Counted from the stretch's first letter, positions 1-40,017 are shown. The stretch: 64,000 nt of DNA from Escherichia coli (GCF_050320075.1 NZ_CP190018.1), one strand, 5' to 3'. The notes: generated by a model not told the origin, from the letters alone. A program made the numbers and translations.

Positions 1-3000
1 CCCGTCAAGATATGTCCAGGTCAAACCGCTTACCGAAAGATTCTGCCAGGTGGTGCCGCCATCAATGCTGATTTGCGCGAACTCACCGGAAGAAAGCGCC
101 GCCCCCAGCGTGCCGCTTACCGCAAGCGTCGTGTCGCTGGTGACAAAATCGTTAGTAATCAATCCAGTATCGGTGGTGATCGCGTTGATGGCGATGGTTT
201 TCACCGCGGGATCTGGCGCGATGGTGTCGATCACCACATTCTGGCTGTCAGTGGCACCGACGTTGCCCGCCGCGTCAATCACCCGCACCTGATAGAGATA
301 ACTGCCATCGGTCAGCGTGCGGCTGTCGTTATAGCGCCAGGTCGTGCCGGTAACGGTGAGCGTGGTCCAGGTTACGCCGCCGTCGATACTGATTTGTGCC
401 GTCTCGTTACTGGCAAGCGCGGCGGTGAGCGAGCCGTTGACCACCACCGGACTGACGCTGGTGATAAAGTCGCTGGAGCTAAGGCCAGTGTCGGCTTGCA
501 GGGAATCGATATTAATACCCATCGCCGGGGCGCTGAGATCGACAGTAATGGTGTGATTGCTGCTGCCGGTGTTGCCAATAGCGTTGCTCACCGAGGCGTT
601 AATCACGTAGGCATTGCCGTCCGCCAGCGCGGTGACATCGACGCTGCCGAGGGTGTAGCTCCAGCTACCGCCGGTCTGTACCGTGGTGGTGTAGGTTTTG
701 CCGTTTAAGGTCAGGGTCAGCGTCTGCCCGACTGGGGCGGTGGTGGTGCCGCTGATCACCAGCGACGAGCCGTGCTCCGCTGCATTCACCACATCATCGC
801 CCGCAAAGGTGTTGATGGTGACGGAGGGGACGTCGCCGTTCAGCGTCACGCCACGGCTGGCGCTGCCGGGGTTTCCGGCCTGATCGCTAACCGTCGCGCT
901 AATGGTGTAGCTGCCGTCGCTTAATCCGGCAAACTGCTGCGCCGGAATAAACACCGACCAGCTTCCGCCGCTGCCGACCGTTGCAGTCCAGCTCTGACCG
1001 TTAAAGGTAACGGTCACCGTCTGGCCCACTTCGGCGGTGGTGGTGCCGCTGATGGTCTGCCCGGCAAGCTGCTCGGCGTTGTTGATAATATCGTCACCCG
1101 CCACCGTGGCGATGGTGACCGTTGGCGCAACGGTATCGACGGTCAGGGCGTGCGTGGTTTGACCGGGGTTACCGGCGCGATCGTTCACGCTGGCGGTAAT
1201 GGTCTGCGCACCCTGCCCGAGCGCGGCCAGATCCGCCGCAGGCACGTTAAGCGCCCAGGTGCCATTGGCGGCAACCGTGGCGGTATAGGTTTTGCCGCCA
1301 AAGGTGACGGTGACCGTCTGCCCCACTTCCGCGCTAGTCGAGCCGTTAAGGGTTAACGGCTGCTGCTGTTCGGCGGCGTTGAGTCGGTCGTCCGTTGAAA
1401 CCGTGTTTATGCTGATAACCGGCGCGGTGAGATCCACCGCCACGCTGCGTGAGGCCGTGGCGCTGTTTCCGGCGCTGTCCTGCGCGGAGGCGCTAACCGT
1501 GTAGCTGGTGCCATCACTGAGTGCTGCGACGTCTGCCGCCGGCACGTTCACGCTCCAGCTCCCGTTGCTCTGAATGGTGGCGCTGTAGCCTTTGCCGTTA
1601 AGCAACACGGTCACTACTGTACCTGCGGCAAAGTTCGTTCCGGTGCCGCTCAGGGTCAGCGCACTGCCTGCTTCGGCGGCGTTAATAATATTATCGCCGC
1701 TGATGGTGCTGACCGAGAGCGACACTGCCGCCGTGTTTACCTGCACGTTGTGCGTCTGCGTACTGCTGTTGCCTGCGCTATCGGTAATGGTGGCGCTGAT
1801 GGTCACCGTGCCGTCCGCAAGGCCGGAAATCACGCTGGCAGGCACGCCAACGCTCCAGTTGCCGCTGGCATCGGTGCTGGTGACATACTGCTGCCCGGCG
1901 ATGGTCACCACCAGGCGGTCGCCCGCCACCGCGCCTGTGGCGGTGCCACTGATAATCTGCGCCTGAGTGTGTTCGACGTTGTTAATCACATCGTCGCCCG
2001 CCACGGTGTTGAAACTGATGACGGGCGCGGTGGTATCGACGGTCACACCTTTGCTGGCGCTGCCAGGGTTACCCGCCAAATCGCTGACCGAGGCGGTCAG
2101 GGTGTAGCCGTTATTGGCAAGTGCGGTTAAGTCGCTGGCGGGCAGCGTTAAACTCCAGCTGCCGTCTGCCTGCACCGTGGTCTGGTAGTTAGTGCCGTTA
2201 AGCGTGACGGTCAGCGTCTGCCCCGTCTCCGCCGTGCTGGTGCCGGATACCGTCACGCCCGCCGCCGCTTCGCTGGCGTTGATGATGTTATCACTGGCAA
2301 TGGTGTTGATGGTCACCGTTGGCGCGGCGCTATCGACGCTGTATTCATGCGTTGCCGTGGCGCTGTTGCCATTGACGTTAGTCACCCGCACCTGGGCGCT
2401 GGCATCGCCGTCACGCAGGGTCGCCATATCCACAGCCGGAACGGTGGTGCTCCAGCTACCGTTAGCCGCCACCGTGGTGGTGTAGGTTTTGCCGCCAAAA
2501 GTAATGGTAACGGTTTGCCCCGCTTCGACACCGGACGTGCTGCCGGAGAGCGTTAGCGCCGCGCCTTTTTCGGCGGCGTTAATCACATCATCGCTGGTGA
2601 TGCTGTTTATGCTGACGGCGACGGTGGTGAGATCAACGGTCAGCGGATGGGTAATGCTGGTTTGCGTTCCGGCACTGTTCGCGCCGCTAACGGTAATATT
2701 CAGCGTTCCCGCAGGCCAGTTACTGACATCCGTCGCAGGAACGCCGACGCTCCAGCTGCCGTTCGCCAGCACCGTGGCGGCGTAAGTTTGATTATTTATC
2801 ACTACGGTCAGCGCCGTGCCCGCCGCAAAGCCGGAGCTGCTACCGGTGATCACCTGCGCCTGACTGTGTTCGATGATATTGACCACATCATCACCCGCGA
2901 CGGTATCCACCCGCAGGCCAGGCAGACTGGCATCGATGGTGATATCGCGCGTGCCGCTACCGGTGTTACCAACGGCGTTGGTCACCGAGGCATTAACCGT

Positions 3001-15000: not shown

Positions 15001-16911
15001 CATCGCGGCGGCAGGTACCGTCAGACTCCAGGAGCCATCAGCCTGCACGGTAGTGGTAAAACTCTGTCCAGCCAGGGTTACTGTGACGGTTTGTCCTGTC
15101 TCGGCCTGTTGAGTGCTACCGGTAAGGGTCAGTGGCGCACCTTTTTCTGCGCCACTGATAATGTCATCGCCGGAGACGGTGTTAATGGTGATTAACGGAG
15201 AAACACCGACCAGCGTGATTGCTCGAGACGCCGCGCCGGTATTTCCTGCAGTATCTGTCACGGTGACGAAAATCGTATTGGCTCCGCGATCCAGCGTGCG
15301 GGTTACCGCTGGGTCCAGCGCCACATTCCAGCTGCCATCTGCCAGCACAATGCCCGTCAGGACATGAGTGCCCAATTTCACCGTTACCGTATCGCCAGGA
15401 GAAGCACCGCTGACTTGTCCGGAGATGATCTGCGCGACGGCCTGCTCAGCATTATTAAGAATATCGTCGCCCGCTACGGTATTAACACTGACCACGGGTG
15501 CTGAGGTATCTACCGTGAAATTCGCGCTGTGGCTGGTGCTGTTCCCTGCCCGATCGCTGACACTGGCATTGACAGCGTAATTACCCTCCGCCAGCGCCTG
15601 GACTTCCGTGGCAGGCAGCGTCACTTGCCAGGTTCCGTCGCTACCGACGGTTGCTGTATGGCTTTTCCCGTTGACGGTCAGTGTTACGGTTTGCCCCGCT
15701 TCTGCATTCGACGTGCCGCTCAGTACCAGCGCGACGTTATGTTCCGCAGCACTGATGATGTTGTCCTGAGCGATGGTGTTGATGGCAAGCGTTGGCGGTT
15801 GGGTATCGACCGTTAGCAGTTGCACGCCGGTGACGGTATTGCCTGTGGCGTCTTTCCCGCTGACCAGCACTGCCTGATTCCCTTCGCCTAACGCCTGCGC
15901 ATCGGCGGTCGGTACCTGCACGCTCCAGGCACCGTTAGCGCCTACGCTGGTGGTGTAGGTTTTGCCGTTTAGCGTAACGGTGAGTTCTGTTCCCTGTGCC
16001 AGATGACTACTGGTGCCAGAAAGCGTAAACCCGGCGGCCTGTTCGCTGGCGTTAATAATGTTATCGCCTGCGGTGGTGGCAACCTGCACGCTGGCCTGAC
16101 TATTGTCGATGGTTAACGTTATCGAACCGGCGTCAGTGATGGTACTGCCGACGATTTGCACCACTGACCAGGTATGTTCGCCCGCGCTTTGCGTGGGCAA
16201 ATCGACGCTCCAGCGTCCATCGCTACCGACCTGAGTACTGGCGATGGTGTCACCATTGCTGTCTTTAATCTGGATGGTCGCCCCCGCCTGCCCGCTGCCG
16301 CTAAAGGTTGGCGTAGTGTCATCGGTGGTATCGTTGGCGGAAAGAATACCGCGTTGATCGCCCTGATTATCGGTTACCAAAAACGATGGCGTGGCGTTGC
16401 CGGGTTCGGCTGGCGGTGGGTTGTTAACCACTTCAGTTTTTGAGTCATCATCGCCACCGCTTGCCAGTAAAGCGCCAAGCGCGCCGCCACCTACCGCCGC
16501 CCCCGCCAGCCATCCCCACGGGAAAGCCGTCGTCTGGCCGACGATATCAAGGTACGGCGCAATGCTTTCAATTGCGGTGGTCTGAGCGGTCAGCTCCACG
16601 GGCGCTAATCCACCTGCCGCGGTATCGGCAAATGTTACGTGGGTCAGTTGTTGACCATCGACAAACACCAGTTCGGATTGTTCGCTGGTATTTGCCGCTT
16701 GCAGGAAATAACCGTTGCAGCGGATCACCGTGCCGTCCTGCATATAGATCAACAAGTCATTTCCGTCACGAACATAACGCGCAACGGCAGATGCCTGAGC
16801 ATGAACCTGCACCACAGAGGGCTCATAAATGACAACCGTAACGTCGCCAGGATTGATCAGCGTTTGTTTGACGGATGTTTTTCGCGAAATAACATCAATA
16901 ATCAGGCTCAT
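1..16911 (-). CDS. Giant repetitive surface adhesin, probable type I secretion substrate (BapA/LapA-like, Ig-like tandem repeats); 5' end in window, 3' end beyond window start (partial, 5,637 codons in window)
   Basis: ATG at 16911-16909 with AGGAA about 8 nt upstream and an in-frame TAA 11 codons further upstream. Window positions 1-3 are in frame, and no minus-strand ORF ending inside 1-16911 is reported in this frame. My translation of the first ~600 codons gives an N-terminal module (MSLIIDVISRK...), a hydrophobic Gly/Ala stretch, then repeated ~100-aa units of the type VDTxxPxxxINTxAGDxIxxAxE...G.TVTxTLNG...DG.W. Plus-strand ORFs across the region are short low-complexity antisense shadows. 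Confidence 0.8.
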   Translation of the reverse strand, partial: MSLIIDVISRKTSVKQTLINPGDVTVVIYEPSVVQVHAQASAVARYVRDGNDLLIYMQDGTVIRCNGYFLQAANTSEQSELVFVDGQQLTHVTFADTAAGGLAPVELTAQTTAIESIAPYLDIVGQTTAFPWGWLAGAAVGGGALGALLASGGDDDSKTEVVNNPPPAEPGNATPSFLVTDNQGDQRGILSANDTTDDTTPTFSGSGQAGATIQIKDSNGDTIASTQVGSDGRWSVDLPTQSAGEHTWSVVQIVGSTITDAGSITLTIDNSQASVQVATTAGDNIINASEQAAGFTLSGTSSHLAQGTELTVTLNGKTYTTSVGANGAWSVQVPTADAQALGEGNQAVLVSGKDATGNTVTGVQLLTVDTQPPTLAINTIAQDNIISAAEHNVALVLSGTSNAEAGQTVTLTVNGKSHTATVGSDGTWQVTLPATEVQALAEGNYAVNASVSDRAGNSTSHSANFTVDTSAPVVSVNTVAGDDILNNAEQAVAQIISGQVSGASPGDTVTVKLGTHVLTGIVLADGSWNVALDPAVTRTLDRGANTIFVTVTDTAGNTGAASRAITLVGVSPLITINTVSGDDIISGAEKGAPLTLTGSTQQAETGQTVTVTLAGQSFTTTVQADGSWSLTVPAAAMGNLPDGAVAITASVTDLSGNTGNTSRTITVDSQAPALSIDPLTADNIINAAESGQDLPITGTTDAQPGQTVTVTLNGQTYQGVVQPDGTWSVTVPAANVGALADGNATVTASVNDIAGNPTSVSRVALVDATPPVVTINPVATDNVINTPEHTQAQIISGTVTGAQAGDIVTVTLNNVDYTTVVDGSGNWSLGVPASVVSGLVDGSYPINVSVTDRAGNTGSQSLTVTVNTAAPLIGINSIAGDDVINASEKGADLQITGTSDQPVNTAITVTLNGQNYTTTTDASGNWSVTVPASAVTALGQANYTVTAAVTSNIGNSNTASHNVLVDSALPGVTINPVATDDIINAAEAGVAQTISGQVTGAEDGDTVTITLGGNTYTATVGSNFTWSVSVPAADIQALGNGDLTVSASVTNQNGNTGSGTRDITIDANLPGLRVDTVAGDDVVNIIEHGQALVVTGSSSGLAEGTPLTVTINNVEYTTAVQADGSWSVGVTAAQVSTWPAGTVNIAVSGESSAGNSVSITHPVTVDLTPAAIAINTIATDDVINAAEKGADLTLSGTTTNVEPGQTVTVTFGGKNYTASVASDGSWTATLPAADLTALPEGSASAQASVSNINGNSASAVHNYSVDSSAPTIIINTVASDNIVNASEADAGVTVSGSTTAEAGQIVTVTLNSPTVQTYQATVQADGSWSINIPAADLEALTDGSHTLTATVNDKAGNPASTTHNLAVDLTVPVLTINTIAGDDIINAAEHGQALVISGSSTGGEAGDVVTVTLNSKTYTTTLDASGNWSVGVPAADVTALGSGPQTVMATVTDAAGNSDSETHTVTVNLTAPTIGINTIATDDIINATEKGADLQISGTSNQPAGTTITVTLNGQNYTATTDASGNWSTTVPASAVGALGEASYTVTANVTDSAGNSNSASHNVQVNTALPGVTINPVASDDIINAAESGVAQTISGQVTGATAGDTVTVTLGGKTYTATVQGNLSWSVDVPAADIQAIGNGDLTVNASVTNGVGNTGSGSRDITIDANLPGLRVDTVAGDDVVNSIEHGQALVITGSSSGLAAGAALTVVINNVTYGATVLADGTWSLGVPAADVGNWPAGTVNITVSGTNTAGTTTTITHPVTVDLAAVAISINTVSGDDVINAAEKSADLTLSGSTSGVEAGQTVTVTFGGKTYTATVAGDGSWTTTVPAADLSALRDGDATVQASVSTINGNTASATHAYSVDATAPTLAINTIATDDILNAAEAGNPLTISGSSNAEAGQTVTVTLNGVTYTGTVQADGSWSVSVPTADLSNLTASPYTVSASVNDKAGNPATATHGLAVDLTVPVLTINTVSGDDIINAAEHGQALVISGSSTGGEAGDVITVTLNSKTYTTTLDASGNWSVGVPAADVTALGSGPQTITATITDIAGNSDDASRTVTVNLTAPTIGINTIASDDVINATEKSADLQITGTSNQPAGTTITVTLNGQNYTATTDSSGNWSATVPASAVSALGEASYTVTANVTDSAGNSNSASHNVLVNSALPAVTINAVATDDIINAAESGNAQTISGQVTGAAAGDTVTVTLGGNTYTATVQANLSWSVSVPAADIQAIGNGSLTVNASVTNVVGNTGNGSRDITIDANLPGLRVDTVAGDDVINSIEHNQALVITGSSSGLTAGTALTVEINNVTYGATVLADGTWSLGIPAADVSNWPAGTVDITVSGTNSAGTTSTITHPVTVDLAGVAITINTLSGDDVINAVEKGETLVVSGSTSGVEAGQTVTVTFGGKNYTTTVESNGSWTVNVPPADLAALPDGAGNVQASVSNINGNSAQADRAYSVDATAPLVTINTIASDDILNVSEAGAGITISGTTTAQVGQTLTVTLNNNTYQTTVQADGTWSVNVPATDLSGLTASSYTVTATVSDKAGNPASADHALAVDVTAPDLTINTVAGDDIINAIEHGQALVVSGTSTGAAAGDVVTVTLNGKNYTTTLDASGNWTVGIPAADVTALATGSQTITASLSDRAGNSDSTTHNVTVDLSGPTLTISTVSDDDIINSTEKTQDLTISGGSSGLATGTTVTVMLNGLAYSATTDSSGNWSVTVPASAVGALGEAVYQISASATDSAGNNGSTTHTVNVESLLPGVIINTVAGDDIINAAEIAVAQTISGQVTGTAVAGNTVIVTIGGNQYTATVQPDLSWSVSVPANVLQALGNGELTISASVTNSANNTGTATHDIVIDANLPGLRVDTVAGDDVINSIEHTQALVITGSGSGLAAGAALTVVINSVTYGATVLADGTWSVGVPAADVTNWPAGTVNIAVSGTNTAGTTTSISHPVTVDLAAVAITINTLSTDDVINAAEKGSDLQLSGTTSDVEAGQTITVIFGGKSYTTTVAAGGTWGLTIPAADLATLPDGAANVQASVSNVAGNSAQATHAYSVDATAPSVTINTIASDDILNAAEAGSALTISGTSTAEAGQTVTVTLNGVNYSGNVQADGSWSVSVPTGDLANLTASPYTVSAAVSDKAGNPASATHNLTVDLAAPVVTINTVAGDDIINATEHAQAQIISGSATGATTGNTVSVTIGTTTYTTVLDANGNWSIGVPASVISALAQGDVTITATVTDSAGNSGTASHTVTVALGAPVLAINTIAVDDIINATEKGADLAISGSSNQPAGTQITVTLNGQNYTTTADASGNWSVTVPASRVSALGEATYTVTAAATDSDGNSGSASHNVQVNTALPGVTINVVATDDIINAAEAGVDQTISGQVTGATAGDTVTVTLGGATYTATVQANLSWSVDVPAAALQALGNGELTISASVTNSVGNTGNGTREITIDANLPGLRVDTVAGDDVVNIIEHGQALVITGSSSGLATDSNVTLTINGQTYVAAVLADGSWSVGVPAADVSAWPAGTVTITASGSTTAGNPVSVTHPVTVDLTAVAVSINAITADDVINAAEKGAALTLSGSTSGVEAGQTVTVTFGGKTYTASVAANGSWSTSVPAADMAALRNGDASAQASVSNVNGNNATTTHAYSVDASVPTVTINTIAGDDILNAAEAGAALTITGSSTAEAGQTVTVTLNGANYTGTVQTDGSWSISVPPADLSALTASNYTVSAAVSDKAGNPASVNHNLTVDTSVPVVTINTVAGDDVINATEHAQAQIISGSATGAATGSTVTVTIGTNTFTTVLDASGNWSVGVPASVVSALANGTVTINASVTDAAGNSGSATHQVTVNTGLPSITFNAISGDNVLNADEKGQPLTISGSSTGLATGAQVTVTLNGHNYSATTDAAGNWTLTVPVSDLAALGQANYIVSASATSAAGNTASSQANLLVDSGLPGVTINTVAGDDIINAAEAGAAQTISGVVTRAAAGDTVTVTLGGNTYTAQVQADLSWSVSVPAADLQALGNGDLTITASVTNANGNTGSGTRDITIDANLPGLRVDTVAGDDIVNSIEHGQALVITGGSSGLNAGVPLTITINGTAYSATVQADGSWSVGIPAANVSAWPAGALTVEVDGQSSAGNPVGVSHPFTVDLTAVAISISTVASDDVINAAEKGTNLTLSGSTSGIESGQTVTVTFGGKTYTASVAANGSWSVNVPAADLAILPDGAANVQASVSSASGNSASATHAYSVDASAPTLTINTIASDDILNATEAGSPLIISGTSTAETGQTVTVTLNGATYSGNVQADGSWSVSVPPSALGALSASNYTVSATVNDKAGNPGSASHNLAVDTTAPVLTINTVVGDDIINDAEHAQALVISGTSTGGEAGDVVSVVLNGKTYTTTLDASGNWSVGVPAADVAALGSGAQTITASVSDRAGNSDDASRTVTVSLTAPVISINTIAGDDVINATEKGSDLALSGISDQPAGTAITVTLNGQNYSATTDSSGNWSVTVPASAVSALGEASYSVTASVTNAQGNSSTASHNVQVNTALPGVTINPVTTDDIINAAEAGSAQTISGQVTGAAAGSTVTVELGGKTYTATVQADLSWNVSVPAADWQALGNGELTVNASVTNAVGNTGSGTRDITIDASLPGLRVDTVAGDDVVNIIEHSQAQVITGSSSGFAAGTALTVVINNQTYAATVLANGSWSVGVPATDVSNWPAGTLNITVSGANSAGTQTSITHPLTVDLTTVAVSINSITSDDVINAAEKGAALTLSGSTSGVEAGQTVTITFGGKTYTTTVAANGSWSTTVPAVDMATLRDGDASAQVRVTNVNGNSATATHEYSVDSAAPTVTINTIASDNIINASEAAAGVTVSGTSTAETGQTLTVTLNGTNYQTTVQADGSWSLTLPASDLTALANNGYTLTASVSDLAGNPGSASKGVTVDTTAPVISFNTVAGDDVINNVEHTQAQIISGTATGAVAGDRLVVTIAGQQYVTSTDASGNWSVGVPASVISGLADGTVTISATITDSAGNSSTQTHNVQVNTAAVSLSVSTISGDNIINAAEAGSALTLSGTGTNFAAGTVVTVLLNGKGYSATIQSNGSWSVNVPAADVAALSDGTSYTVSASAQDSAGNSATASRSVAVDLTAPVISINTVSTDDRLNAAEQQQPLTLNGSTSAEVGQTVTVTFGGKTYTATVAANGTWALNVPAADLAALGQGAQTITASVNDRAGNPGQTTHALTVDTVAPTVTIATVAGDDIINNAEQLAGQTISGTTTAEVGQTVTVTFNGQSWTATVGSGGSWSVFIPAQQFAGLSDGSYTISATVSDQAGNPGSASRGVTLNGDVPSVTINTFAGDDVVNAAEHGSSLVISGTTTAPVGQTLTLTLNGKTYTTTVQTGGSWSYTLGSVDVTALADGNAYVINASVSNAIGNTGSSNHTITVDLSAPAMGINIDSLQADTGLSSSDFITSVSPVVVNGSLTAALASNETAQISIDGGVTWTTLTVTGTTWRYNDSRTLTDGSYLYQVRVIDAAGNVGATDSQNVVIDTIAPDPAVKTIAINAITTDTGLITNDFVTSDTTLAVSGTLGAALSSGEFAQISIDGGTTWQNLSVSGLTWTYLDG
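300..16200 (-). repeat. Intragenic tandem repeat array: ~300-bp (about 100-aa) Ig-like units organised in ~1.8-kb super-repeats
   Basis: Recurring motifs at regular spacing: ctccagcttaaat near 3050, 4850, 6645, 8440, 10240, 12040 (and a variant near 13840); gttttgccgccaaaggtgacggtgac-like near 1291, 2489, 4276, 6076, 7871, 9671, 11471, 13271. Antisense shadow ORFs (MPPKVTVTVCP...) recur at 2489, 6080, 7874, 9674. Array bounds are approximate. Confidence 0.8.
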
Positions 16912-17019
16912 AATGGCATTCCTGATAAATGGCGCACATCCTTAGCGAGTCCATTTATCTAAATAAGACAAAGGTAATCACTCAACAACGATGCATACCT
17001 GATATTAATAATGGCAGGA

Positions 17020-18375
17020 TTATTTCAAGTCGGGTAAGTCGTTGTATAAGCCCTGTTTAATTCCCGCTAATGGAATAAGGTTATTAACCGCAGCGGCATA
17101 ATTCACTGCGGCGACCCAGCCATCATAATTGGCATTTATTTCAGCCGATTGCGCCTGAAAGACATCTTGCTCGACGGTTAATAGATCATTCAGGCTGCGT
17201 TTACCCAATTTATATTCATTTTGGTAGACATCTCGCGTTCTGTGCGCACTTTCAGATTGCGCTAACCCAGCCTCTTCACGACCCCGTGCGCCTGTCCAGT
17301 TGGCATATGCCACAGACGCTCGTTGCAGCACATCCAGTTTTGCCTGTTCGACCTGCGAGGCAGAGATTTTTTGTTGCCCTTCAGCCTGTTGCACCTGGGC
17401 AGAAACCGCGCCGCCCTGATACAGCGGCGCGTTAACGTTCAGTTGTAGCTGATCATCCCAATACGAGCGGTCGCTGGTCTGGTAGCGCGTTTTGCCCCCC
17501 TGAATACTCAGCGTTGGCCAGTATTGCGCTTTCGTTTTTTCCACGCCGTACTGTGCTGACTGGCGTAAGTTTTCTGCCGCCAGCACCAGCGGGATGGACT
17601 GGTAATCAATATTTTTCAGCGATACCGGCTGCTCGGCTAATTCAGCAGGTGGCGCGGCTATCGCCTCCGGCTGTACGCCAGTGAGCACCGCCAGTTGCGC
17701 TTTGGCGCTTGCCATCTGCGCCTGATATTGCTCCAGCGTTGAGCGCATTCCGGCAATGCGCGTCTGGGCCTGTAATTCATCCGACGACGAGTTCAGGCCA
17801 GCGTTAGCACGCAATGCTGCCATGTTGTAGACGTTTTCCAGCGAGTGAATATTGCGTTGAGCCGCATCGCACAAAGCCTGATAACGACTGACTTCCATAT
17901 AGGCAGTCGCCGTTTTCTCTGCAACATCGGTTAAGGTTGCCATCAATTTAAAGCGGTAGCTGTCACGGGCGGCAGTTTGCAGTTTGATATCGTTGTTAGT
18001 TTTACCAAAGTCATACACCAGCTGTGTCAGGGTTATGCCATACGAAACGTTGTTATCAAGCCTGCCACTGGAGTCCGTTTGTCGGGACGGTCCCGCATTG
18101 CCGGTTAATCCAACGTGCGGATACCAGGCACTTTTGGCTTCATCAATTTGCGCTTCGCCAATACCTATCTGCGCCGCCTGTTGAGTGACGTCGGGATTTC
18201 GCGCAAAGGCGCGTAATATACTTTCCTGTAAAGATAATTGGGCAACTGGCGTTACCGCTGGGGCGTTCGCCCATTGTGGCAGCGGTGCAGCAATTGTAGC
18301 TTCTCCCATCACCATAAAACTTATTAAAAAAATAAACCCATTATTTTTACGGCTTTTAAACTGGAATCGCGCCAT
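17020..18375 (-). CDS. TolC-family outer-membrane efflux/secretion protein (probable T1SS outer-membrane factor)
   Basis: 451-aa ORF with N-terminal signal-peptide-like segment (MARFQFKSRKNNGFIFLISFMVMGEATIA) and coiled-coil-rich Q/A/L composition typical of outer-membrane factor proteins; AGGAAG about 10 nt upstream; same strand and 108 bp upstream of the giant adhesin start. Confidence 0.7.
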   Translation of the reverse strand: MARFQFKSRKNNGFIFLISFMVMGEATIAAPLPQWANAPAVTPVAQLSLQESILRAFARNPDVTQQAAQIGIGEAQIDEAKSAWYPHVGLTGNAGPSRQTDSSGRLDNNVSYGITLTQLVYDFGKTNNDIKLQTAARDSYRFKLMATLTDVAEKTATAYMEVSRYQALCDAAQRNIHSLENVYNMAALRANAGLNSSSDELQAQTRIAGMRSTLEQYQAQMASAKAQLAVLTGVQPEAIAAPPAELAEQPVSLKNIDYQSIPLVLAAENLRQSAQYGVEKTKAQYWPTLSIQGGKTRYQTSDRSYWDDQLQLNVNAPLYQGGAVSAQVQQAEGQQKISASQVEQAKLDVLQRASVAYANWTGARGREEAGLAQSESAHRTRDVYQNEYKLGKRSLNDLLTVEQDVFQAQSAEINANYDGWVAAVNYAAAVNNLIPLAGIKQGLYNDLPDLK

Positions 18376-18680
18376 AGATAAGTCACTTCCTTCCAGGTCA
18401 TTATTTTAACTGGTTTTTATAACTAGTCTCATTTTATTAAGAAGGGTAATAACTTGTGCATCTCTTTTGTCGATCATTGATATTGGCAAAGAAATGCAGC
18501 TAAAAAGCTTATACGTTATTTATTTAGAATACACTACGACTTTTAGATTACCATCATACACATTAAGAATAATCCACGGCAATAAGTGATTAGCATCACA
18601 GATTTATCGCGTATATATCATTTTTTTGTGACTTATTTATTAAAGGAATAAGAAAGGTAATTTGAATTAAAGACAAAGGC

Positions 18681-18703
18681 GCAGTACAGGCTGTACTGCG
18701 CAC
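18681..18703 (-). terminator. Probable rho-independent terminator downstream of ybaT
   Basis: Perfect hairpin gcgcagtaca-ggc-tgtactgcgc followed on the minus strand by a T-rich run (CTTTGTCTTTAATT). Confidence 0.5.
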
Positions 18704-18712
18704 AGAGAGGTG

Positions 18713-20005
18713 TTATACGGTTTTATTGCGCTTCATGACCATTGCCACAATAAGGCTGAGTAAGATTGCACCAATAATCCATATCAACGCACGGCTGCCC
18801 TGGGACCACAGGCTGTAGATAAAGCCAATGATCACCAACAACATCACCAACGTACCAACGATAAGAATCGGCAACAAGGCGTGAATATCATGACGCAGGC
18901 GGATCGCCACCACAAACACCGCCAGATAGCAGATCAAAAAGGTGGCGCTGGCAACGCTGGCGAGTGAGCCTAAATTCAGCGCCGCCGTCATCAGCATAAT
19001 CAGCACCACGACAATGATGTTGCCCCAGGTACTCTGCCGCCACAGGGATTTATTCATTAGCTTCGGCAGTTCGCGTTCGCTGCCCATGTTGTCCATGATG
19101 TTAAACACGGCGAACAGGTTCGCGTTGATGGCTGAAGCCGTCGCCAGTAAAGCGCCGATGACGACGATCACATAACCCACATGCCCGAGCAGCGGAGAAG
19201 CTGCCTGCGCTACGGCGGTATCGGCATATTTTTCTAACTCTAAAGCCGATACATCGCTAAGCAAAACCAGCGCCAGCGAGATATAAAGCAACGTGGTAAC
19301 GCCAATCGCCACCAGAAACGCCCGTGGCATAATGACCTGCGGATCTTTCACTTTATCCGCCGCGTTCGCCATCATGCCAAAGCCCGCATAGGCAAGGAAG
19401 GTTATCCCGATACAGGAGAAGAACGCACCGGAGCTGGGGGGCGCAGAGACAGAAATATGCGCCGGTTGCAGCGACCAGACACCGGCAATAATCAGCAATA
19501 ACAGGATCATCATTTTAATGCCGACGAGGATCACTTCCAGCCGCCCTACCGCATGGTTGCTTAAGGAGTTGAAAAGCGTCATCACCGCAATGATCCCCAA
19601 CGCGTAGAGCAATATAAGGTGCTCCTCCTGGCTGCCTTCATGCAAAAACTGCACGGCATAAGCGCCAAAAGCACGGGCGACCATGGCGATGCTCACCGCC
19701 AGCGTCAACAGGTACAGTAACGAGAGCGCCAGCGAAAAGACGCCGTTGCCTAATCCGCGACGAAAGAAGTCGATAATACCGCCATTGCTGGGATAGCTCG
19801 CCCCCAGGCGCGCATAGGCATAACCGGAAAACATCGCCACAATACCGCCAAATGCAAAGGCGACCCAGGTCGAGGCTTCCATTAGCAACGCAGCCTGCCC
19901 CAGCAGCGCGAAGATCCCCGCCCCCACCATTGCCCCAATACCGATGGAAACGACGTTCCATAGACCGAGGGGTTTGTTACCGTTATTACCTTCCGTGTTC
20001 ATCAT
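18713..20005 (-). CDS. ybaT: APC-family amino acid permease YbaT
   Basis: 430-aa polytopic membrane protein ORF; start codon 2 nt from the glsA stop (operon with glsA). Confidence 0.9.
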   Translation of the reverse strand: MMNTEGNNGNKPLGLWNVVSIGIGAMVGAGIFALLGQAALLMEASTWVAFAFGGIVAMFSGYAYARLGASYPSNGGIIDFFRRGLGNGVFSLALSLLYLLTLAVSIAMVARAFGAYAVQFLHEGSQEEHLILLYALGIIAVMTLFNSLSNHAVGRLEVILVGIKMMILLLLIIAGVWSLQPAHISVSAPPSSGAFFSCIGITFLAYAGFGMMANAADKVKDPQVIMPRAFLVAIGVTTLLYISLALVLLSDVSALELEKYADTAVAQAASPLLGHVGYVIVVIGALLATASAINANLFAVFNIMDNMGSERELPKLMNKSLWRQSTWGNIIVVVLIMLMTAALNLGSLASVASATFLICYLAVFVVAIRLRHDIHALLPILIVGTLVMLLVIIGFIYSLWSQGSRALIWIIGAILLSLIVAMVMKRNKTV

Positions 20006-20007
20006 GA

Positions 20008-20940
20008 TCAGCCCTTAAACACGTTATAGCCGAGTTGCTTAGCGACCGATGCCACCATTTTTTGACCGCGAACACTGTTGCCTTCTTCGTCCAGCGGTGG
20101 TGAGAACGCGGCAATTCCCATCACGCCAGGGACGACCGCCAGAATACCGCCACCTACACCGCTTTTGCCCGGTAAACCAACGCGATACGCCCAGTCACCG
20201 GAGCGACCATACAGCCCTTCCATCATCATTTCAGCCAGAATGTACGGCACGTTGTCGGCCTGAAGAACGCGCTTATGAGTCAGCGGATTCACACCACCCG
20301 CCGCCAGCGTCGCGCCAAGCGTTGCCAGTTCAACAGTATTGATGAGCGTGGAGCACTGACGGGTGTACACGTCACAGGCTTCCATTGCATCACAATAGAG
20401 ATATCCGGCGGAGTACAGCAGCCAGGCAATGGCCCGGTTATGGAAGTTGGTTGTTTGTTCCGACTGGTTGACTTCGTCAGAGAGCGCTACCTGCTCACCA
20501 GCCAGTTGTTGTTGGATATGTAAAATTCGCTGCCAGCGTTGTTCGGCATTTTCAGCGTTAATCAGGCTGGTGGTGGCAATAGCGCCAGCATTTACCAGTG
20601 GCGACAGCGGTTTGCCGCCATGCAACTCTAAGGCGATAACTGAGTTAAAGGGCAATCCGGTCGGGTCAGCGCCAACTTTGTCCTGTACCGCCTGCGGGCC
20701 GACATCTTCTAACGCAAGGGCTAACGTACAGACTTTCGAGATGGATTCCAGCGCAAAACGGTAATCACTATCACCCGCGCGATAGATGTTGCCATCGCAG
20801 GTCACAATAGCCACTGCTGCCAGTTGACCAGGTACATTCGCCAGAAAGGGAATGTAGTCGGCATTTTGTCCGCCGTTAAGTGAGTGAAATTGGGTGTAAG
20901 CCTGATCCACTGCCTGCTGTAATTTGTTTGCATCTAACAT
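20008..20940 (-). CDS. glsA: Glutaminase 1
   Basis: 310-aa ORF, serine-dependent glutaminase family; sits upstream of ybaT on the same strand. Confidence 0.9.
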   Translation of the reverse strand: MLDANKLQQAVDQAYTQFHSLNGGQNADYIPFLANVPGQLAAVAIVTCDGNIYRAGDSDYRFALESISKVCTLALALEDVGPQAVQDKVGADPTGLPFNSVIALELHGGKPLSPLVNAGAIATTSLINAENAEQRWQRILHIQQQLAGEQVALSDEVNQSEQTTNFHNRAIAWLLYSAGYLYCDAMEACDVYTRQCSTLINTVELATLGATLAAGGVNPLTHKRVLQADNVPYILAEMMMEGLYGRSGDWAYRVGLPGKSGVGGGILAVVPGVMGIAAFSPPLDEEGNSVRGQKMVASVAKQLGYNVFKG

Positions 20941-21202: not shown

Positions 21203-23707
21203 ATGTCACAAACTATCGACCTGACCCTGGACGGCCTGTCCTGCGGTCACTGCGTTAAACGCGTGAAAGAAAGTCTCGAACAGCGCCCGGATGTTGAGCA
21301 GGCGGATGTGTCTGTCACTGAAGCGCACGTTACCGGGACTGCCAGTGCAGAACAGCTGATCGAAACCATCAAACAAGCGGGTTATGACGCATCTGTAAGC
21401 CACCCAAAGGCTAAACCGCTGGCGGAGTCATCAATCCCGTCGGAAGCACTGACAGCGGTTTCTGAGGCGCTTCCGGCAGCGACCGCCGATGACGATGACA
21501 GCCAGCAGTTGCTGCTGAGCGGCATGAGCTGCGCCAGCTGTGTCACCCGCGTACAAAATGCGTTGCAAAGCGTACCGGGCGTCACTCAGGCACGGGTAAA
21601 CCTGGCGGAGCGTACTGCGCTGGTGATGGGCAGTGCCTCCCCACAAGATTTAGTGCAGGCGGTGGAAAAAGCGGGCTACGGCGCGGAAGCGATTGAAGAT
21701 GACGCTAAACGCCGCGAGCGCCAGCAGGAAACCGCAGTCGCTACGATGAAGCGCTTCCGCTGGCAGGCAATTGTCGCACTGGCGGTGGGTATCCCGGTGA
21801 TGGTCTGGGGGATGCTCGGCGATAACATGATGGTCACCGCTGACAACCGCAGCTTGTGGTTAGTTATCGGCCTGATAACCCTGGCAGTGATGGTTTTCGC
21901 CGGCGGCCATTTTTACCGTAGTGCATGGAAAAGCCTGCTGAACGGTGCAGCGACGATGGATACGCTGGTGGCGCTAGGTACTGGCGTGGCGTGGCTCTAT
22001 TCGATGAGCGTCAACCTGTGGCCGCAGTGGTTCCCGATGGAAGCGCGACATCTTTATTACGAAGCCAGCGCGATGATTATCGGTCTGATCAATCTCGGCC
22101 ATATGCTGGAAGCGCGCGCGCGTCAGCGTTCTTCTAAGGCGCTGGAGAAATTACTCGATTTAACCCCACCGACGGCGCGCCTGGTCACCGACGAAGGTGA
22201 AAAAAACGTGCCGCTGGCAGATGTTCAGCCAGGTATGTTACTGCGCCTGACGACCGGCGACCGTGTGCCGGTAGATGGTGAGATTACCCAAGGCGAAGCG
22301 TGGCTGGATGAAGCGATGCTGACGGGCGAACCTATCCCGCAGCAAAAAGGCGAAGGCGATAGCGTCCATGCCGGGACAGTGGTACAGGACGGCAGTGTGC
22401 TGTTTCGTGCCAGTGCGGTCGGCAGCCATACTACGCTGTCACGGATCATTCGCATGGTGCGACAGGCCCAGAGCAGCAAGCCAGAAATCGGTCAACTGGC
22501 GGATAAAATCTCCGCCGTGTTTGTGCCGGTAGTGGTAGTCATTGCGCTGATCAGTGCGGCAATCTGGTATTTCTTTGGTCCGGCACCGCAGATTGTCTAT
22601 ACCCTGGTGATTGCCACCACGGTGCTGATTATCGCCTGTCCGTGTGCGCTGGGACTGGCGACGCCGATGTCGATTATTTCGGGCGTCGGGCGGGCGGCTG
22701 AGTTTGGTGTGCTGGTGCGGGACGCCGACGCGCTGCAACGCGCCAGTACGCTCGACACCGTGGTGTTCGATAAAACCGGGACGCTGACCGAAGGGAAGCC
22801 GCAGGTTGTCGCAGTAAAAACATTTGCTGATGTTGATGAAGCGCAGGCATTGCGTCTGGCGGCGGCGCTGGAGCAAGGTTCCAGCCACCCGCTGGCACGG
22901 GCGATCCTCGATAAAGCAGGTGATATGCAGCTACCGCAGGTCAACGGTTTCCGCACATTGCGCGGGCTGGGTGTGAGCGGTGAAGCTGAAGGTCATGCGG
23001 TATTGCTGGGCAATCAGGCGCTGTTAAATGACCAGCAAGTTGATACTAAAGCGATTGAGGCAGATATTTCAGCTCAGGCATCACAAGGGGCAACGCCTGT
23101 GCTGCTGGCGGTTGACGGGAAAGCGGTAGCCCTGCTGGCTGTACGCGATCCATTGCGTAGTGATAGCGTGGCGGCGCTGCAACGCCTGCATAAAGCGGGA
23201 TATCGTCTGGTGATGCTAACCGGGGATAACCCAACCACCGCCAATGCGATCGCCAAAGAAGCAGGGATTGATGAGGTGATAGCCGGGGTGCTACCGGACG
23301 GTAAAGCCGAAGCGATCAAACGTCTGCAAAGTGAAGGACGTCAGGTGGCAATGGTGGGCGACGGCATTAACGACGCGCCAGCGCTGGCTCAGGCGGATGT
23401 CGGTATTGCGATGGGTGGCGGCAGTGATGTTGCCATTGAAACCGCGGCGATTACCCTGATGCGCCATAGCCTGATGGGTGTTGCGGATGCGCTCGCGATT
23501 TCCCGCGCAACGCTGCGCAATATGAAGCAGAACCTGCTCGGCGCGTTTATCTACAACAGTATCGGTATTCCGGTCGCCGCCGGTATTTTGTGGCCGTTCA
23601 CTGGAACACTGCTTAACCCGGTGGTCGCCGGAGCGGCAATGGCGCTCTCGTCGATTACCGTAGTGAGTAACGCCAACCGGTTGCTGCGGTTTAAACCGAA
23701 GGAATGA
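21203..23707 (+). CDS. copA: Copper(I)-exporting P1B-type ATPase
   Basis: 834-aa ORF with two N-terminal GLSCGHC / GMSCASC metal-binding motifs, CPC transmembrane motif, DKTGT phosphorylation site and GDGIND motif; SD GGAG upstream. Confidence 0.95.
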
Positions 23708-23789
23708 TTGGTATTTACTTAATGCGTTTGTGAGATCCAGTTCTTGTTGCGCTCCTTTTATGAGTAATGCCATATAAAGTGACTGGCGC

Positions 23790-23990
23790 AGGGAGCGCGC
23801 AGGGGGCGGCCAATCGCCGCCGCCCCCTGCACCCCCGGGCTCTGGCGAACAAAATCTCCGCTGCGCGGTACCCTCAGCTTATCCCTTGCGGCTACCGGGT
23901 CGGGCGCGAGGTAACATCCCTGTAAAACGCGCCCTCAGCCCACATCCATGTGGGCTGCCCCGGCCTTCAGGGAACGCCTCGGCGATTTTG
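23790..23990. repeat. GC-rich palindromic non-coding element in the copA-ybaP spacer
   Basis: No ORF of 60 aa or more that is not attributable to overlap with copA or ybaP. Contains a 12-bp perfect inverted repeat gcagggggcggc / gccgccccctgc with an 8-nt loop and a second palindrome gcccacat-cc-atgtgggc; GC content well above the flanking sequence. Confidence 0.35.
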
Positions 23991-24135
23991 ACGCCACCAA
24001 CACCGGTGCAGTCTTTCGTTTCAAAGCAAAAACAATTTTTCGATCATATTTAAGCTACCACTGAACAAGCCTCATAACTCCATTTGCGCCATCCCTCCCC
24101 GCGCGCTAGCATGATATTTCACAAAGGGAGGTCGT

Positions 24136-24930
24136 ATGGATCTGTTGTACCGGGTAAAAACGCTTTGGGCCGCGCTGCGCGGTAATCATTACACCTGGCC
24201 TGCTATCGATATCTCTCTTCCCGGCAATCGCCATTTTCATCTGATTGGCAGTATTCATATGGGCAGCCACGATATGGCTCCCCTGCCCACCCGTTTGCTC
24301 AAAAAGCTCAAAAACGCCGATGCGCTGATCGTCGAGGCGGATGTTTCCACCAGCGATACGCCTTTTGCTAATTTGCCTGCCTGCGAGGCGCTGGAAGAGC
24401 GCATTAGCGAGGAGCAACTCCAAAACCTGCAGCACATTAGCCAGGAGATGGGCATTTCTACCTCACTCTTTTCTACCCAACCGCTGTGGCAAATCGCGAT
24501 GGTTCTTCAGGCGACGCAGGCACAAAAACTGGGGCTGCGGGCAGAATACGGTATCGATTACCAGCTATTGCAGGCGGCGAAGCAACAACATAAACCCGTG
24601 ATTGAACTGGAAGGGGCTGAAAACCAGATTGCCATGTTGCTCCAGCTCCCTGACAACGGACTGGCACTGCTGGACGATACGCTGACCCACTGGCACACCA
24701 ATGCACGGTTGCTGCAACAAATGATGAGCTGGTGGCTGAATGCGCCGCCGCAAAATAATGAAATAACGCTGCCTAATACGTTCAGTCAATCGCTGTACGA
24801 TGTGCTGATGCATCAGCGAAATCTCGCCTGGCGGGACAAATTATGCGCCATGCCGCCGGGGCGCTATGTGGTCGCAGTCGGTGCACTACACCTGTATGGA
24901 GAAGGGAATTTGTCGCAGATGTTGCGCTAA
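24136..24930 (+). CDS. ybaP: TraB/GumN-family protein YbaP
   Basis: 264-aa ORF, ATG at 24136 with GGAGG upstream. Confidence 0.85.
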   Translation: MDLLYRVKTLWAALRGNHYTWPAIDISLPGNRHFHLIGSIHMGSHDMAPLPTRLLKKLKNADALIVEADVSTSDTPFANLPACEALEERISEEQLQNLQHISQEMGISTSLFSTQPLWQIAMVLQATQAQKLGLRAEYGIDYQLLQAAKQQHKPVIELEGAENQIAMLLQLPDNGLALLDDTLTHWHTNARLLQQMMSWWLNAPPQNNEITLPNTFSQSLYDVLMHQRNLAWRDKLCAMPPGRYVVAVGALHLYGEGNLSQMLR

Positions 24931-25012
24931 AAAAATGGCCAATATCGCTATTGGCCCGTCAAAGAGGAATTTCATTTTTTTATTATTATGCCGTCACTTT
25001 AAGCGACGGTGT
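24929..25012 (-). ncRNA. chiX: ChiX (MicM/SroB) small regulatory RNA
   Basis: Minus-strand sequence ACACCGTCGCTTAAAGTGACGGCATAATAATAAAAAAATGAAATTCCTCTTTGACGGGCCAATAGCGATATTGGCCATTTTTT matches the ChiX sequence as I recall it, including the terminator hairpin (ggccaata/tattggcc) and U-run; lies between ybaP and ybaK. Confidence 0.85.
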
Positions 25013-30654: not shown

Positions 30655-30689
30655 ACGGTGGTTGCCGGATAATAGGCGCGGATATGTAG

Positions 30690-30772
30690 GCCTGATAAGA
30701 CGCGCCAGCGTCGCATCAGGCATCGAGAGCCAAATGCCAGATGCGGCGTGAACGCCTTATCTGGCCTACGAA
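30690..30772. repeat. REP/BIME element (two inverted REP copies)
   Basis: gtaggcctgataagacgcgccagcgtcgcatcaggca and tgccagatgcggcgtgaacgccttatctggcctac, inverted relative to each other, in the ybaL-gsk convergent spacer. Confidence 0.7.
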
Positions 30773-38085: not shown

Positions 38086-40017
38086 TCAAATGGGGCGGAT
38101 ACTTTCTTCATCCAGCTCCGCATCGAAGAACCGACGCAGGGTCTGAATATTATTATCCGCAATAATGGACTCGCGCGCCTGCGCAAGTTTTTCTTCGTAT
38201 ATCGCCTGACGCCATTCCAGCGGCGTACGCACCGCGGGATTATCATCTTCAACGATAGTCAGTTCAACCGTTGAACCTTTTAACATGCTCAACGCTTCAG
38301 CCAGTTTTTGCTGTGCGCCGCGGTTGTTCAAATGCCGCTGAGAGGAGCGCAAATGCAGACATACTGCGTTGTCGCTCTCCTCTTTCCAGGCATTTAACGC
38401 CACCTGTTCGACCAGTTTTGGTAGCGAAAGTTGACTCACCTGAGCCGCCCACGGGTCGCGCTCAATGGCTTCTGCCGCCAGCTTCGCCGCCAGTTCCGGC
38501 GTTTTTTCATGTTCCAGCGCTTTTTTCAGCGCCTTCGGCGTAGCGACCACTTCTTTTTGCTGCATCACTGGAGTGGTGGCCTTCCAGCGATACGCTTCTT
38601 TTTTGGCTGGCGCTTTTTCCAGCGCCGATGGCACCGGACGCGCCTGAACGCGATCGGTGACCGAAGCCAGTCTTTCCAGCGCAGCGTTATTCACCGGCCG
38701 CGCGCGGGTAGCGGCTGCCGGTTCACTCTTTTTTGCTTTGGTTGCTCCCTGCACGCGCTGCAACTGCTGGCGCGCCGCCAGCACCTGGCTGGTGGTTTCC
38801 GGGAGCGGTACAGTCGGTGCCTGCTGCGGCGCTGATTGCGGTTGCGGCGGCACCTGGGTTGGCGTCATTACTGCCGTTGGCGCGACGGGCGCAAAGGACT
38901 GGCGTGGCACTTCTGGCTCAGGCAGCGGCATACGCGGATGGAACGCCAGCGCGCGCAACAGCGTCATCTCAACGCCCATACGGCGGTCTGGCGCATACGG
39001 TAATTCTTTGCGACCAATCAACAGCGTCTGATAGTAAAGCTGAATATCCGTCGGCGGTATGGTGCGCGCCAGTTCACGCATCCGCAGCTCGATAGCGGCC
39101 ATGTCGTTGCCAAGTGCAGCAGGCGAAAGTTGTACCATCGCAATACGATGCAACAGGCCGAGCATTTCCACCAGCAACGCTTCCCACTCGATACCACGGG
39201 CAGCGGCTTCATTAATCAGTGCCATTACGCGCTCGCCGTTGGCCTCGATCATCGCTTCAACCAGCGACAGCGCCTGATCGTCGTCAAGCGTACCCAGCAT
39301 CGCACTGACCGCCTGAGTTGAAACCTGGCCGTCACCGCTGGCAATCGCCTGGTCGGTCAGACTTAAGGCATCTCGCAGGCTGCCTTCAGCGGCGCGTGCC
39401 AGCAATTGCAGCGCCCGCGGCTCGTGAGCGATATGTTCTTCGTTGAGGATGTGCTCAAGCTGATGGCGAATTTGCTCGACATCCAGCGCCTTGAGATGAA
39501 ATTGCAGACAACGTGACAAAATCGTCACCGGCAATTTCTGCGGATCGGTCGTCGCCAGCAGAAACTTAACGTGCTCTGGCGGCTCTTCAAGGGTTTTTAA
39601 CAGTGCGTTAAAGCTGTGGCGCGACAGCATATGCACTTCGTCGATCAGATAAACTTTGAAACGACCACGCGCCGGAGCGTACTGGACGTTATCCAGCAGG
39701 TCGCGAGTGTCTTCAACTTTAGTGCGCGAGGCGGCATCGATTTCAATCAGATCGACAAAGCGCCCCTGCTCGATTTCACGACAGTTATCGCACACGCCGC
39801 ACGGCGTCGCGGTAATGCCGGTTTCGCAGTTTAGCCCCTTCGCCAGCAGTCGGGCGATAGAGGTTTTTCCGACGCCACGGGTGCCGGAAAAAAGATAAGC
39901 ATGATGAATACGCCCTAACGACAAGCCGTTCGCCAGTGCGGTCAGCACATGTTCCTGGCCGACGACGTCAGCAAAGGTTTGTGGGCGCCATTTTCGGGCT
40001 AAGACCTGATAACTCAT
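38086..40017 (-). CDS. dnaX: DNA polymerase III subunits tau and gamma
   Basis: 643-aa ORF with AAA+ Walker A (GTRGVGKT); contains the frameshift site listed separately. Confidence 0.97.
   Translation of the reverse strand: MSYQVLARKWRPQTFADVVGQEHVLTALANGLSLGRIHHAYLFSGTRGVGKTSIARLLAKGLNCETGITATPCGVCDNCREIEQGRFVDLIEIDAASRTKVEDTRDLLDNVQYAPARGRFKVYLIDEVHMLSRHSFNALLKTLEEPPEHVKFLLATTDPQKLPVTILSRCLQFHLKALDVEQIRHQLEHILNEEHIAHEPRALQLLARAAEGSLRDALSLTDQAIASGDGQVSTQAVSAMLGTLDDDQALSLVEAMIEANGERVMALINEAAARGIEWEALLVEMLGLLHRIAMVQLSPAALGNDMAAIELRMRELARTIPPTDIQLYYQTLLIGRKELPYAPDRRMGVEMTLLRALAFHPRMPLPEPEVPRQSFAPVAPTAVMTPTQVPPQPQSAPQQAPTVPLPETTSQVLAARQQLQRVQGATKAKKSEPAAATRARPVNNAALERLASVTDRVQARPVPSALEKAPAKKEAYRWKATTPVMQQKEVVATPKALKKALEHEKTPELAAKLAAEAIERDPWAAQVSQLSLPKLVEQVALNAWKEESDNAVCLHLRSSQRHLNNRGAQQKLAEALSMLKGSTVELTIVEDDNPAVRTPLEWRQAIYEEKLAQARESIIADNNIQTLRRFFDAELDEESIRPI
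38690..38734 (-). other. dnaX programmed -1 ribosomal frameshift site (A AAA AAG heptamer plus downstream stem-loop) generating gamma
   Basis: Minus strand GCAAAAAAGAGTGAACCGGCAGCCGCTACCCGCGCGCGGCCGG; slippery heptamer at 38734-38728, an in-frame-after-shift UGA two codons later, and a GC-rich stem-loop immediately 3'. Encodes the ...KAKKSEPAAATRARPVN... segment. Confidence 0.85.

Follow-up and report, generated by a model that had tools for sequence, protein, structure and literature searches.

How should we read a frame of 16.9 kb that enters the 64,000-nucleotide stretch of the Escherichia coli chromosome NZ_CP190018.1 (assembly GCF_050320075.1) analyzed here, which we call the window, and is still open at its first letter? 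The locus raises two questions, namely what the gene encodes and whether it is a recent gain of this lineage or something that most other E. coli have lost. Our analysis implies that this region very probably belongs to the siiEA operon of E. coli, whose promoter-proximal part it contains and which is orthologous to O-island 28 of E. coli O157:H7. The genes of the operon encode, in this order, a TolC-like outer-membrane factor, the adhesin SiiEA, an LssB/LapB-type transporter of the ATP-binding cassette (ABC) family and a HlyD-family adaptor, and the site, a fixed one on the chromosome, lies between ybaT and cueR. The first 41 kb of the window differ by 2 bases from the chromosome of E. coli YZLc1-3 (NZ_CP123240.1), in which RefSeq labels the adhesin gene as "siiEA, BapA-related adhesin SiiEA"; the 16.9-kb adhesin stretch is 100% identical in YZLc1-3 and is found at an identity of at least 99% in 48 complete genomes. 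The locus is already known: it has its own NCBIfam model (NF047714) and a RefSeq name, and the orthologous island was functionally characterized in 2025. The gene siiEA was listed among the adhesin loci of strain UMN026 in 2011 (PMC3256949), and a genome paper on enteroaggregative E. coli (EAEC) from Mali is the relevant literature under the name siiEA. What we add are modest refinements: the recognition of a deletion scar in K-12, the distinction between the amber-split O157:H7 copy and the intact allele, a six-unit repeat in the extender array and an FG-GAP propeller head.

The two genes at this end of the operon occupy the following positions:

1-16911, minus strand: siiEA, encoding a giant adhesin of type I secretion; 5,637 codons from the start, out of about 6,924, with the 3' end past the window start
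17020-18375, minus strand: gene of a TolC-family type I secretion outer-membrane factor, 451 aa (TIGR01844, 415.9 bits against a cutoff of 225)

Both genes stand where a first-pass annotation of the sequence had placed them, in tandem and with a gap of 108 bp between them. Translation of the minus strand of 1-16911 gives 5,637 codons with zero stops, and the frame remains open at position 1. About 3-4% of random codons would be expected to be stops at such GC content, from which we infer that an uninterrupted frame of this length is far beyond chance. The NCBIfam model NF047714 (adhesin_SiiEA) matches with 504 bits against a curated cutoff of 425, and residues 1-228 of the protein align to model positions 1-228 of 229. 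Because the model aligns from its first position, the ATG at 16911 is the true start of the gene. In YZLc1-3 siiEA has 20,775 nt and 6,924 codons, 1,287 of which lie past the window; the full-length protein of that strain has a mass of 689 kDa, an isoelectric point of 4.05 and a single cysteine, and is rich in Thr, Ala, Val, Gly and Ser.

One would argue that such a gene could be a decaying pseudogene that yields no functional product in this strain. The locus is indeed prone to loss, being deleted in 82% of genomes, interrupted in O157:H7 and internally deleted in strain GDSC2227PM, and the 3' end of siiEA lies beyond the window. However, neither a stop codon nor a frameshift, either of which would have spoken against the first-pass annotation, was found across the 16.9 kb. 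In addition, the Prokaryotic Genome Annotation Pipeline (PGAP) reports an intact coding sequence of 6,924 aa in the near-identical genome and of 6,925 aa in O55:H7, and the allele is present at an identity of at least 99% in the 48 complete genomes mentioned above. Therefore, we regard a pseudogene in this strain as highly improbable and treat siiEA as an intact adhesin gene.

The part of SiiEA that is encoded in the window is arranged as follows:

16543-16899, minus strand: BapA-prefix N-terminal module, presumed retention "plug" (aa 5-123; PF22783, NF033677)
16456-16524, minus strand: hydrophobic Gly/Ala-rich linker after the prefix domain (aa 130-152, PWGWLAGAAVGGGALGALLASGG)
520-16083, minus strand: 52 tandem immunoglobulin-like (Ig-like) extender units of 99-102 aa (aa 277-5464), located by self-BLAST of one unit
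1-519, minus strand: second Ig-like unit type of about 106 aa (Big_13; aa 5465-5637), read from the translation and running past the window start

The first-pass annotation had seen a BapA/LapA-like N-terminus followed by Ig-like units of about 100 aa, and this description is borne out by Pfam, NCBIfam and self-BLAST alike. Pfam finds BapA_N, Big_13 and Big_6 in the window part of SiiEA. The BapA_N family (PF22783) matches aa 5-123 with E = 7e-18, and with the BapA prefix model NF033677, which has a cutoff of 35 bits, the score is 71. In the AlphaFold2 (AF2) model of the N-terminus, residues 1-115 are beta-rich, with a per-residue confidence (pLDDT) of about 70-80 in this part. The linker PWGWLAGAAVGGGALGALLASGG is close to invariant among the aligned Enterobacteriaceae homologues, and aa 130-152 are of low confidence and unstructured in the AF2 model. 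The first Ig-like domain, at residues 176-270, is placed by both Pfam and the AF2 model.

An N-terminus of this kind would also be expected of a LapA-type adhesin, the retention of which would be set by a LapG-like protease that cuts at TAAG (aa 97-100) and by a LapD-like receptor of cyclic di-GMP. The first 400 residues of SiiEA hold one [TAP]AA[GV] motif, this TAAG at the end of the prefix domain, which is roughly where LapA is cleaved, and the ABC transporter of the operon is of the LssB/LapB type. However, the motif varies among orthologues: AASG stands in place of TAAG in a second E. coli-like allele, Enterobacter and other orthologues have AGEAS-type sequences, and the motif is replaced in the aligned Pluralibacter and Pseudocitrobacter orthologues as well. 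Furthermore, a search of the operon neighborhood, where the neighbors are ybaT and cueR, found no lapG- or lapD-like gene beside the operon. On the aligned orthologues and the neighborhood of the operon, control of SiiEA by a protease of the LapG type is very unlikely.

Most of the window part of siiEA is taken up by the extender array, in which self-BLAST with one unit returned 52 in-register copies. Units that stand six apart are 66-71% identical, compared with about 44% for neighbors and for other lags, and this gives units 9-48 a higher-order repeat with a period of six units, which is about 600 aa or about 1.8 kb. The model NF033510 (Ca_tandemer, "Ca2+-stabilized repeat-containing adhesin") reaches 689 bits within the first 1,000 aa. 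The nearest solved structure of the extender units is the MpIBP RII tetra-tandemer (4P99, E = 8e-56), and further relatives in the PDB are an RTX adhesin (5IRB) and Marinobacter MhLap (6XI3). The window start falls inside the second Big_13 unit, and Pfam Big_13 matches are found on the continuation of the gene past the window (locus L001). Altogether, Ig-like extender domains as seen in adhesins make up more than 85% of SiiEA. The extender repeats were mapped at the protein level; Tandem Repeats Finder reported no repeats when it was run on 1-17000, because the units are about 44% identical as protein and the 1.8-kb period exceeds its 500-bp limit. A repetitive higher-order array with this period is a hazard for short-read assembly and annotation. 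On the plus strand, window positions 50-16962 hold dozens of open reading frames of 80-278 aa that are antisense to the adhesin gene, and these are most likely by-products of GC-rich repetitive coding sequence.

The C-terminus of SiiEA, the ABC transporter and the adaptor were read from the near-identical genome YZLc1-3 and not from the window. The expectation of the first-pass annotation that all three would lie past the window start agrees with that genome, in which they are present before cueR. The C-terminal region of SiiEA contains at least 3 FG-GAP_3 repeats, the propeller region falling at about aa 6,200-6,700, and the type I secretion C-terminal target domain TIGR03661 is matched with 34.4 bits against a cutoff of 17.6. 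The AF2 model of the last 799 residues, built with 30 homologues, has a pLDDT of 88 and a predicted TM-score (pTM) of 0.90. In structural comparison this model matches the FG-GAP beta-propeller of CRTAC1 (E = 1e-13, TM 0.60 on the target), and its other top matches are integrin alpha beta-propellers and the RTX beta-rolls of serralysin-type proteases. The C-terminal module has homologues among the giant adhesin-like proteins found in Enterobacter, Pluralibacter, Acinetobacter, Bartonella, Pseudomonas and others. Directly after siiEA lies the gene of a type I secretion permease/ATPase of 720 aa, which belongs to the LssB type (TIGR03375, 835 bits, cutoff 693). The match of its N-terminus to a C39 peptidase domain is marginal (E = 0.029), and cysteine is absent from the 82 N-terminal residues in the alignment, which is consistent with a degenerate C39-like domain. 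The ABC transporter gene is followed by that of a HlyD-family adaptor of 391 aa (TIGR01843, 328 bits, cutoff 209) and then by cueR. The adaptor stop overlaps the cueR start (ATGA; positions 11381-11384 of locus L002, outside the window). In island-bearing strains cueR abuts the secretion operon, and the K-12 cueR promoter region corresponds to adaptor coding sequence there.

A giant protein that combines RTX nonapeptides with a type I secretion system (T1SS) could alternatively be an RTX toxin, that is, a cytolysin, and "RTX toxins" is the term used in the study of O-island 28 (PMC12758282). The composition of SiiEA argues for an adhesin instead: more than 85% of it is Ig-like extender domain, and its BapA prefix is an adhesin feature, as is its FG-GAP head. 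Moreover, the operon contains no gene for an hlyC-type acyltransferase, and the phenotype described in O157:H7 is reduced adherence and not a loss of cytotoxicity. It is therefore exceedingly improbable that SiiEA is a toxin. All four structural elements of an RTX/Bap-type adhesin are found in SiiEA and its operon, namely a module for retention, an array of extender units, a beta-roll followed by a secretion signal and a dedicated T1SS. By its structure, the class to which the first-pass annotation had assigned the gene, an adhesin exported by a T1SS, is the appropriate one, and the score above the cutoff of the SiiEA model makes the assignment more specific.

If SiiEA works in the way that has been described in general for RTX/Bap-type adhesins (bioRxiv 10.1101/2025.09.30.679566), its C-terminal signal would be recognized by the ABC transporter, and the unfolded protein would be exported C-terminus first through the channel formed by the ABC transporter, the adaptor and the outer-membrane factor. 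Outside the cell, Ca2+ would fold the beta-roll and stiffen the extender units into a rod hundreds of nanometers long. The prefix domain, which would fold without Ca2+, may plug the outer-membrane factor and in this way tether the fiber to the cell, and the distal FG-GAP propeller region would be a putative ligand-binding head for host epithelium or surfaces.

Upstream of the outer-membrane factor gene the window contains the following elements:

18376-18712, minus strand: AT-rich spacer of 337 bp between ybaT and the outer-membrane factor gene (GC 0.43 over 18001-19000)
18656-18669, minus strand: RstA box TAATTCAAATTACC, a 14-mer spanning -294 to -281 relative to the ATG of the outer-membrane factor gene
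18679-18701, minus strand: ybaT intrinsic terminator hairpin, 10-bp stem and T-run; left border of the region deleted in K-12

Promoter-like sites are present in the spacer at 18582-18553, 18460-18431 and 18432-18403. The exact RstA box TAATTCAAATTACC is found once in the window, just downstream of the ybaT terminator hairpin. Compared with the O-island 28 regulatory region of O157:H7 strain Sakai, the 337-bp spacer has 7 mismatches and an identical RstA box. In O157:H7, binding of RstA to the box TAATTCAAATTACC (-294 to -280) was documented by electrophoretic mobility shift assay and chromatin immunoprecipitation, RstA activates the O-island 28 operon (PMC12758282), and Ca2+ raises the expression of the island (PMC12758282). 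By analogy, the expression of siiEA is probably activated by RstA and Ca2+ in the present strain, as it is in O157:H7.

The similarity to O-island 28 is not limited to the spacer. In Sakai the genes ECs_0540-0544, which likewise stand between ybaT and cueR, form a locus with the four functions of the siiEA operon, and the system is also known as ECUMN_0527 in UMN026 and as Z0608-Z0635 in O157:H7. The outer-membrane factor is 98% identical to that of Sakai (ECs_0540 / Z0608, "tolC28") and the ABC transporter is 99% identical to its Sakai counterpart, while the repeat region of siiEA shows just 85-95% identity between the alleles. Deletion of O-island 28, or of any of its five annotated genes, lowered adherence to Caco-2 cells and colonization of mice (Niu et al., Gut Microbes 2025; PMC12758282). 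That paper handles the two halves of the gene as two RTX proteins, rtxA28 and rtxB28, and mentions neither a stop codon nor a pseudogene (PMC12758282). In the Sakai genome the adhesin is annotated as ECs_0541 (1,461 aa) and ECs_0542 (5,291 aa), and what separates them is a single in-frame TAG, after which the frame continues. The corresponding codon in the window encodes glutamate:

12529-12531, minus strand: codon E1461 (GAA) of siiEA; the Sakai equivalent is an in-frame TAG (positions 15737-15739 of locus L004)

For O157:H7 strain FRIK944, PGAP labels siiEA a pseudogene and adds the remark "frameshifted; internal stop". In O55:H7 strain DEC5A siiEA is intact and has 6,925 codons; the DEC5A stretch that we compared ends inside the adaptor gene. 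Thus the allele of the present strain is uninterrupted within the window, in contrast to the O157:H7 copy that is split by TAG. Results obtained with O-island 28 of O157:H7 should not be transferred uncritically to lineages with an intact gene, nor the other way round.

The second question, gain or loss, is best approached from the strains that lack the operon. We used the chromosomal context between ybaT and cueR as our own working criterion, which stands outside the NCBIfam definition of SiiEA; its ybaT side was read in the window and its cueR side in YZLc1-3, Sakai, FRIK944 and GDSC2227PM. The first-pass annotation had stated that cueR directly follows ybaT in K-12, which is correct: in MG1655 a spacer of 124 bp (positions 8870-8993 of locus L003) separates the two genes. 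We compared this spacer with window positions 18650-18741 and with positions 11366-11520 of locus L002. Over approximately 20 nt behind the ybaT stop it agrees with the window, so that the 5' arm of the terminator is kept and the 3' arm is lost. Its last approximately 95 nt, which run up to the cueR ATG, can be aligned with the 3' end of the gene for the HlyD-family adaptor, and this adaptor remnant is 92-93% identical to island-bearing genomes by megablast. Because a remnant of the adaptor and half of the terminator hairpin are kept, the K-12 state is the scar of a deletion of about 25.8 kb from an island-bearing allele. When a 201-bp probe that spans the junction of K-12 was compared with the 5,426 complete genomes, 4,459 of them matched at least 80% of its length; about 960 genomes match it in two separated parts only, which agrees with the 959 that carry siiEA DNA. 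The locus is therefore essentially a two-state polymorphism with one shared deletion allele in about 82% of complete genomes. GDSC2227PM (positions 4371-6465 of locus L008) has a separate internal deletion that removed nearly the whole adhesin gene together with the 5' end of the ABC transporter gene and left the prefix region fused next to the truncated transporter gene.

It could be argued that the operon is nonetheless a recent, horizontally acquired island that was inserted between ybaT and cueR in this lineage. It is missing from K-12 and from about 82% of complete genomes, and the adhesin gene has a GC content of 0.58-0.63, compared with about 0.50-0.55 in the flanks. The high GC content, however, results in part from the Thr-, Ala-, Gly- and Val-rich composition of the repeats. 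An insertion is also difficult to reconcile with a K-12 spacer that retains the adaptor 3' end and half of the ybaT hairpin on either side of an approximately 25.8-kb deletion, or with the identical K-12 junction in 4,459 genomes. No integrase, tRNA or insertion sequence (IS) element is annotated at the borders, and the divergent O157:H7 and O55:H7 carry the operon at the identical site. In addition, 60 further sampled records of human, poultry, cattle and pig origin match the adhesin; for these records the comparison covered the adhesin match alone. We therefore consider a recent acquisition unlikely. The first-pass annotation had spoken of a strain-variable accessory insert: the locus is indeed variable, as about 959 of the 5,426 complete genomes have it, but the word insert reverses the direction of change, at least for the K-12-type allele, which is a deletion scar that carries the adaptor 3' end.

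It could be that the intact allele of 6,924 codons represents the ancestral, functional version of a locus which is being lost repeatedly in E. coli, with the K-12 scar, the O157:H7 pseudogene and internal deletions as its states of decay; we give this proposal about even chances. If it is true, the phenotypes described in O157:H7 stem from a truncated or a read-through product, and the full-length protein with its integrin-like FG-GAP tip is made only in the lineages that have intact alleles.

Several points weigh against reading the window as part of a functional siiEA operon of this type. The window contains neither the last 1,287 codons of the adhesin gene nor the genes for the ABC transporter and the adaptor, and the near-identical genomes suggest that this strain would have them too. 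The RTX match is weak (PF00353 HemolysinCabind, E = 2e-4), and it consists of one block of about 3-5 nonapeptides. At the other end of the protein, the N-terminal AF2 model as a whole reaches just pLDDT 66. Foldseek with this model returned generic Ig-like and beta-sandwich folds with low TM-scores, which are uninformative on the retention mechanism, and a sequence search of the PDB with the N-terminal 279 aa gave no match up to E = 1. The retention role of the prefix domain is a putative one, assigned by its likeness to other adhesins. Finally, the published experiments were done in O157:H7, in which the gene is interrupted, and not with an intact allele. In our opinion the scores of the family models, the gene order and the chromosomal site make the identification of the siiEA operon very probable all the same.

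A giant surface adhesin can affect colonization, biofilm formation and host range, and siiEA is carried by about 18% of complete E. coli genomes. The findings on siiEA leave the current understanding of type I secretion adhesins unchanged.

On the ybaT side, the siiEA operon is flanked in the window by the following genes:

18713-20005: ybaT, flank of the siiEA operon
20008-20940: glsA, beyond ybaT
21203-23707: copA, beyond glsA

At 23706-24063 of the window ybaQ is absent, and 358 bp of unrelated GC-rich sequence replace the K-12 segment between copA and ybaP, which is about 725 bp long and carries ybaQ and repetitive extragenic palindromic (REP) elements. From ybaP to decR, the remaining sequence of the window belongs to the standard backbone of E. 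coli. It includes ordinary core-genome RNA elements, namely the small RNA sroB/ChiX at 24929-25012, an naRNA4/REP element at 30689-30766, the dnaX frameshifting element at 38689-38753 and the 4.5S RNA of the signal recognition particle (SRP) at 55387-55483. At the window end, 63778-64000, a partial tnpA of the IS200/IS605 family adjoins decR, according to the annotation of the near-identical genome. On the other side of the operon, the interval between cueR and ybbJ (positions 8552-10973 of locus L002, outside the window) is a second strain-variable block, which contains a YadA-family autotransporter adhesin of 338 aa and three small hypothetical genes. This block is also found in O157:H7; K-12 is without it, and cueR abuts ybbJ there.

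Several known systems resemble the siiEA operon, each in a different part. One of them is BapA of Salmonella enterica (bapABCD), and NCBI calls SiiEA "BapA-related". The two share the BapA-prefix domain (NF033677, PF22783), a long Ig-like array and a dedicated set of outer-membrane factor, ABC transporter and adaptor. SiiEA is about twice as large as BapA, which is encoded at another chromosomal locus with a different gene order. The extender array resembles region II of MpIBP from Marinomonas primoryensis and MhLap of Marinobacter, in that its units of about 100 aa are clear sequence relatives of the RII tandem domains, which Ca2+ rigidifies, and the overall layout is that of an RTX adhesin. 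The difference lies in the head, which is an FG-GAP beta-propeller in SiiEA, and ice-binding, sugar-binding and von Willebrand factor A (vWFA) domains are absent from it. LapA of Pseudomonas fluorescens (LapBCE) is likewise a giant T1SS adhesin that carries a retention module at its N-terminus and is served by an ABC transporter of the LssB/LapB type and by its own TolC-like outer-membrane factor. SiiEA would work in the manner of LapA and MpIBP. In contrast to LapA with LapD and LapG, the siiEA operon has no adjacent lapD or lapG, and TAAG is not conserved among the siiEA orthologues.

The name siiEA was borrowed from SiiE of Salmonella, which is encoded in Salmonella pathogenicity island 4 (SPI-4; siiABCDEF) and is also a giant enteric T1SS adhesin, one that serves epithelial contact. 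The C-terminal Big_13 units of SiiEA match BIg50-52 of SiiE weakly (2YN3, E = 8e-8). However, the main repeats of SiiEA find MpIBP RII, MhLap and RTX adhesins and not the BIg domains of SiiE, and the N-terminus of SiiEA is a BapA prefix. Genes for the MotAB-like siiA and siiB are absent at the locus, where the interval between ybaT and cueR holds four genes, as judged from the YZLc1-3 and Sakai context. Therefore, despite its name, siiEA is not a SiiE-type (SPI-4) system: it joins a BapA prefix and MpIBP-like extender units to an FG-GAP head and a transporter of the LssB/LapB type.

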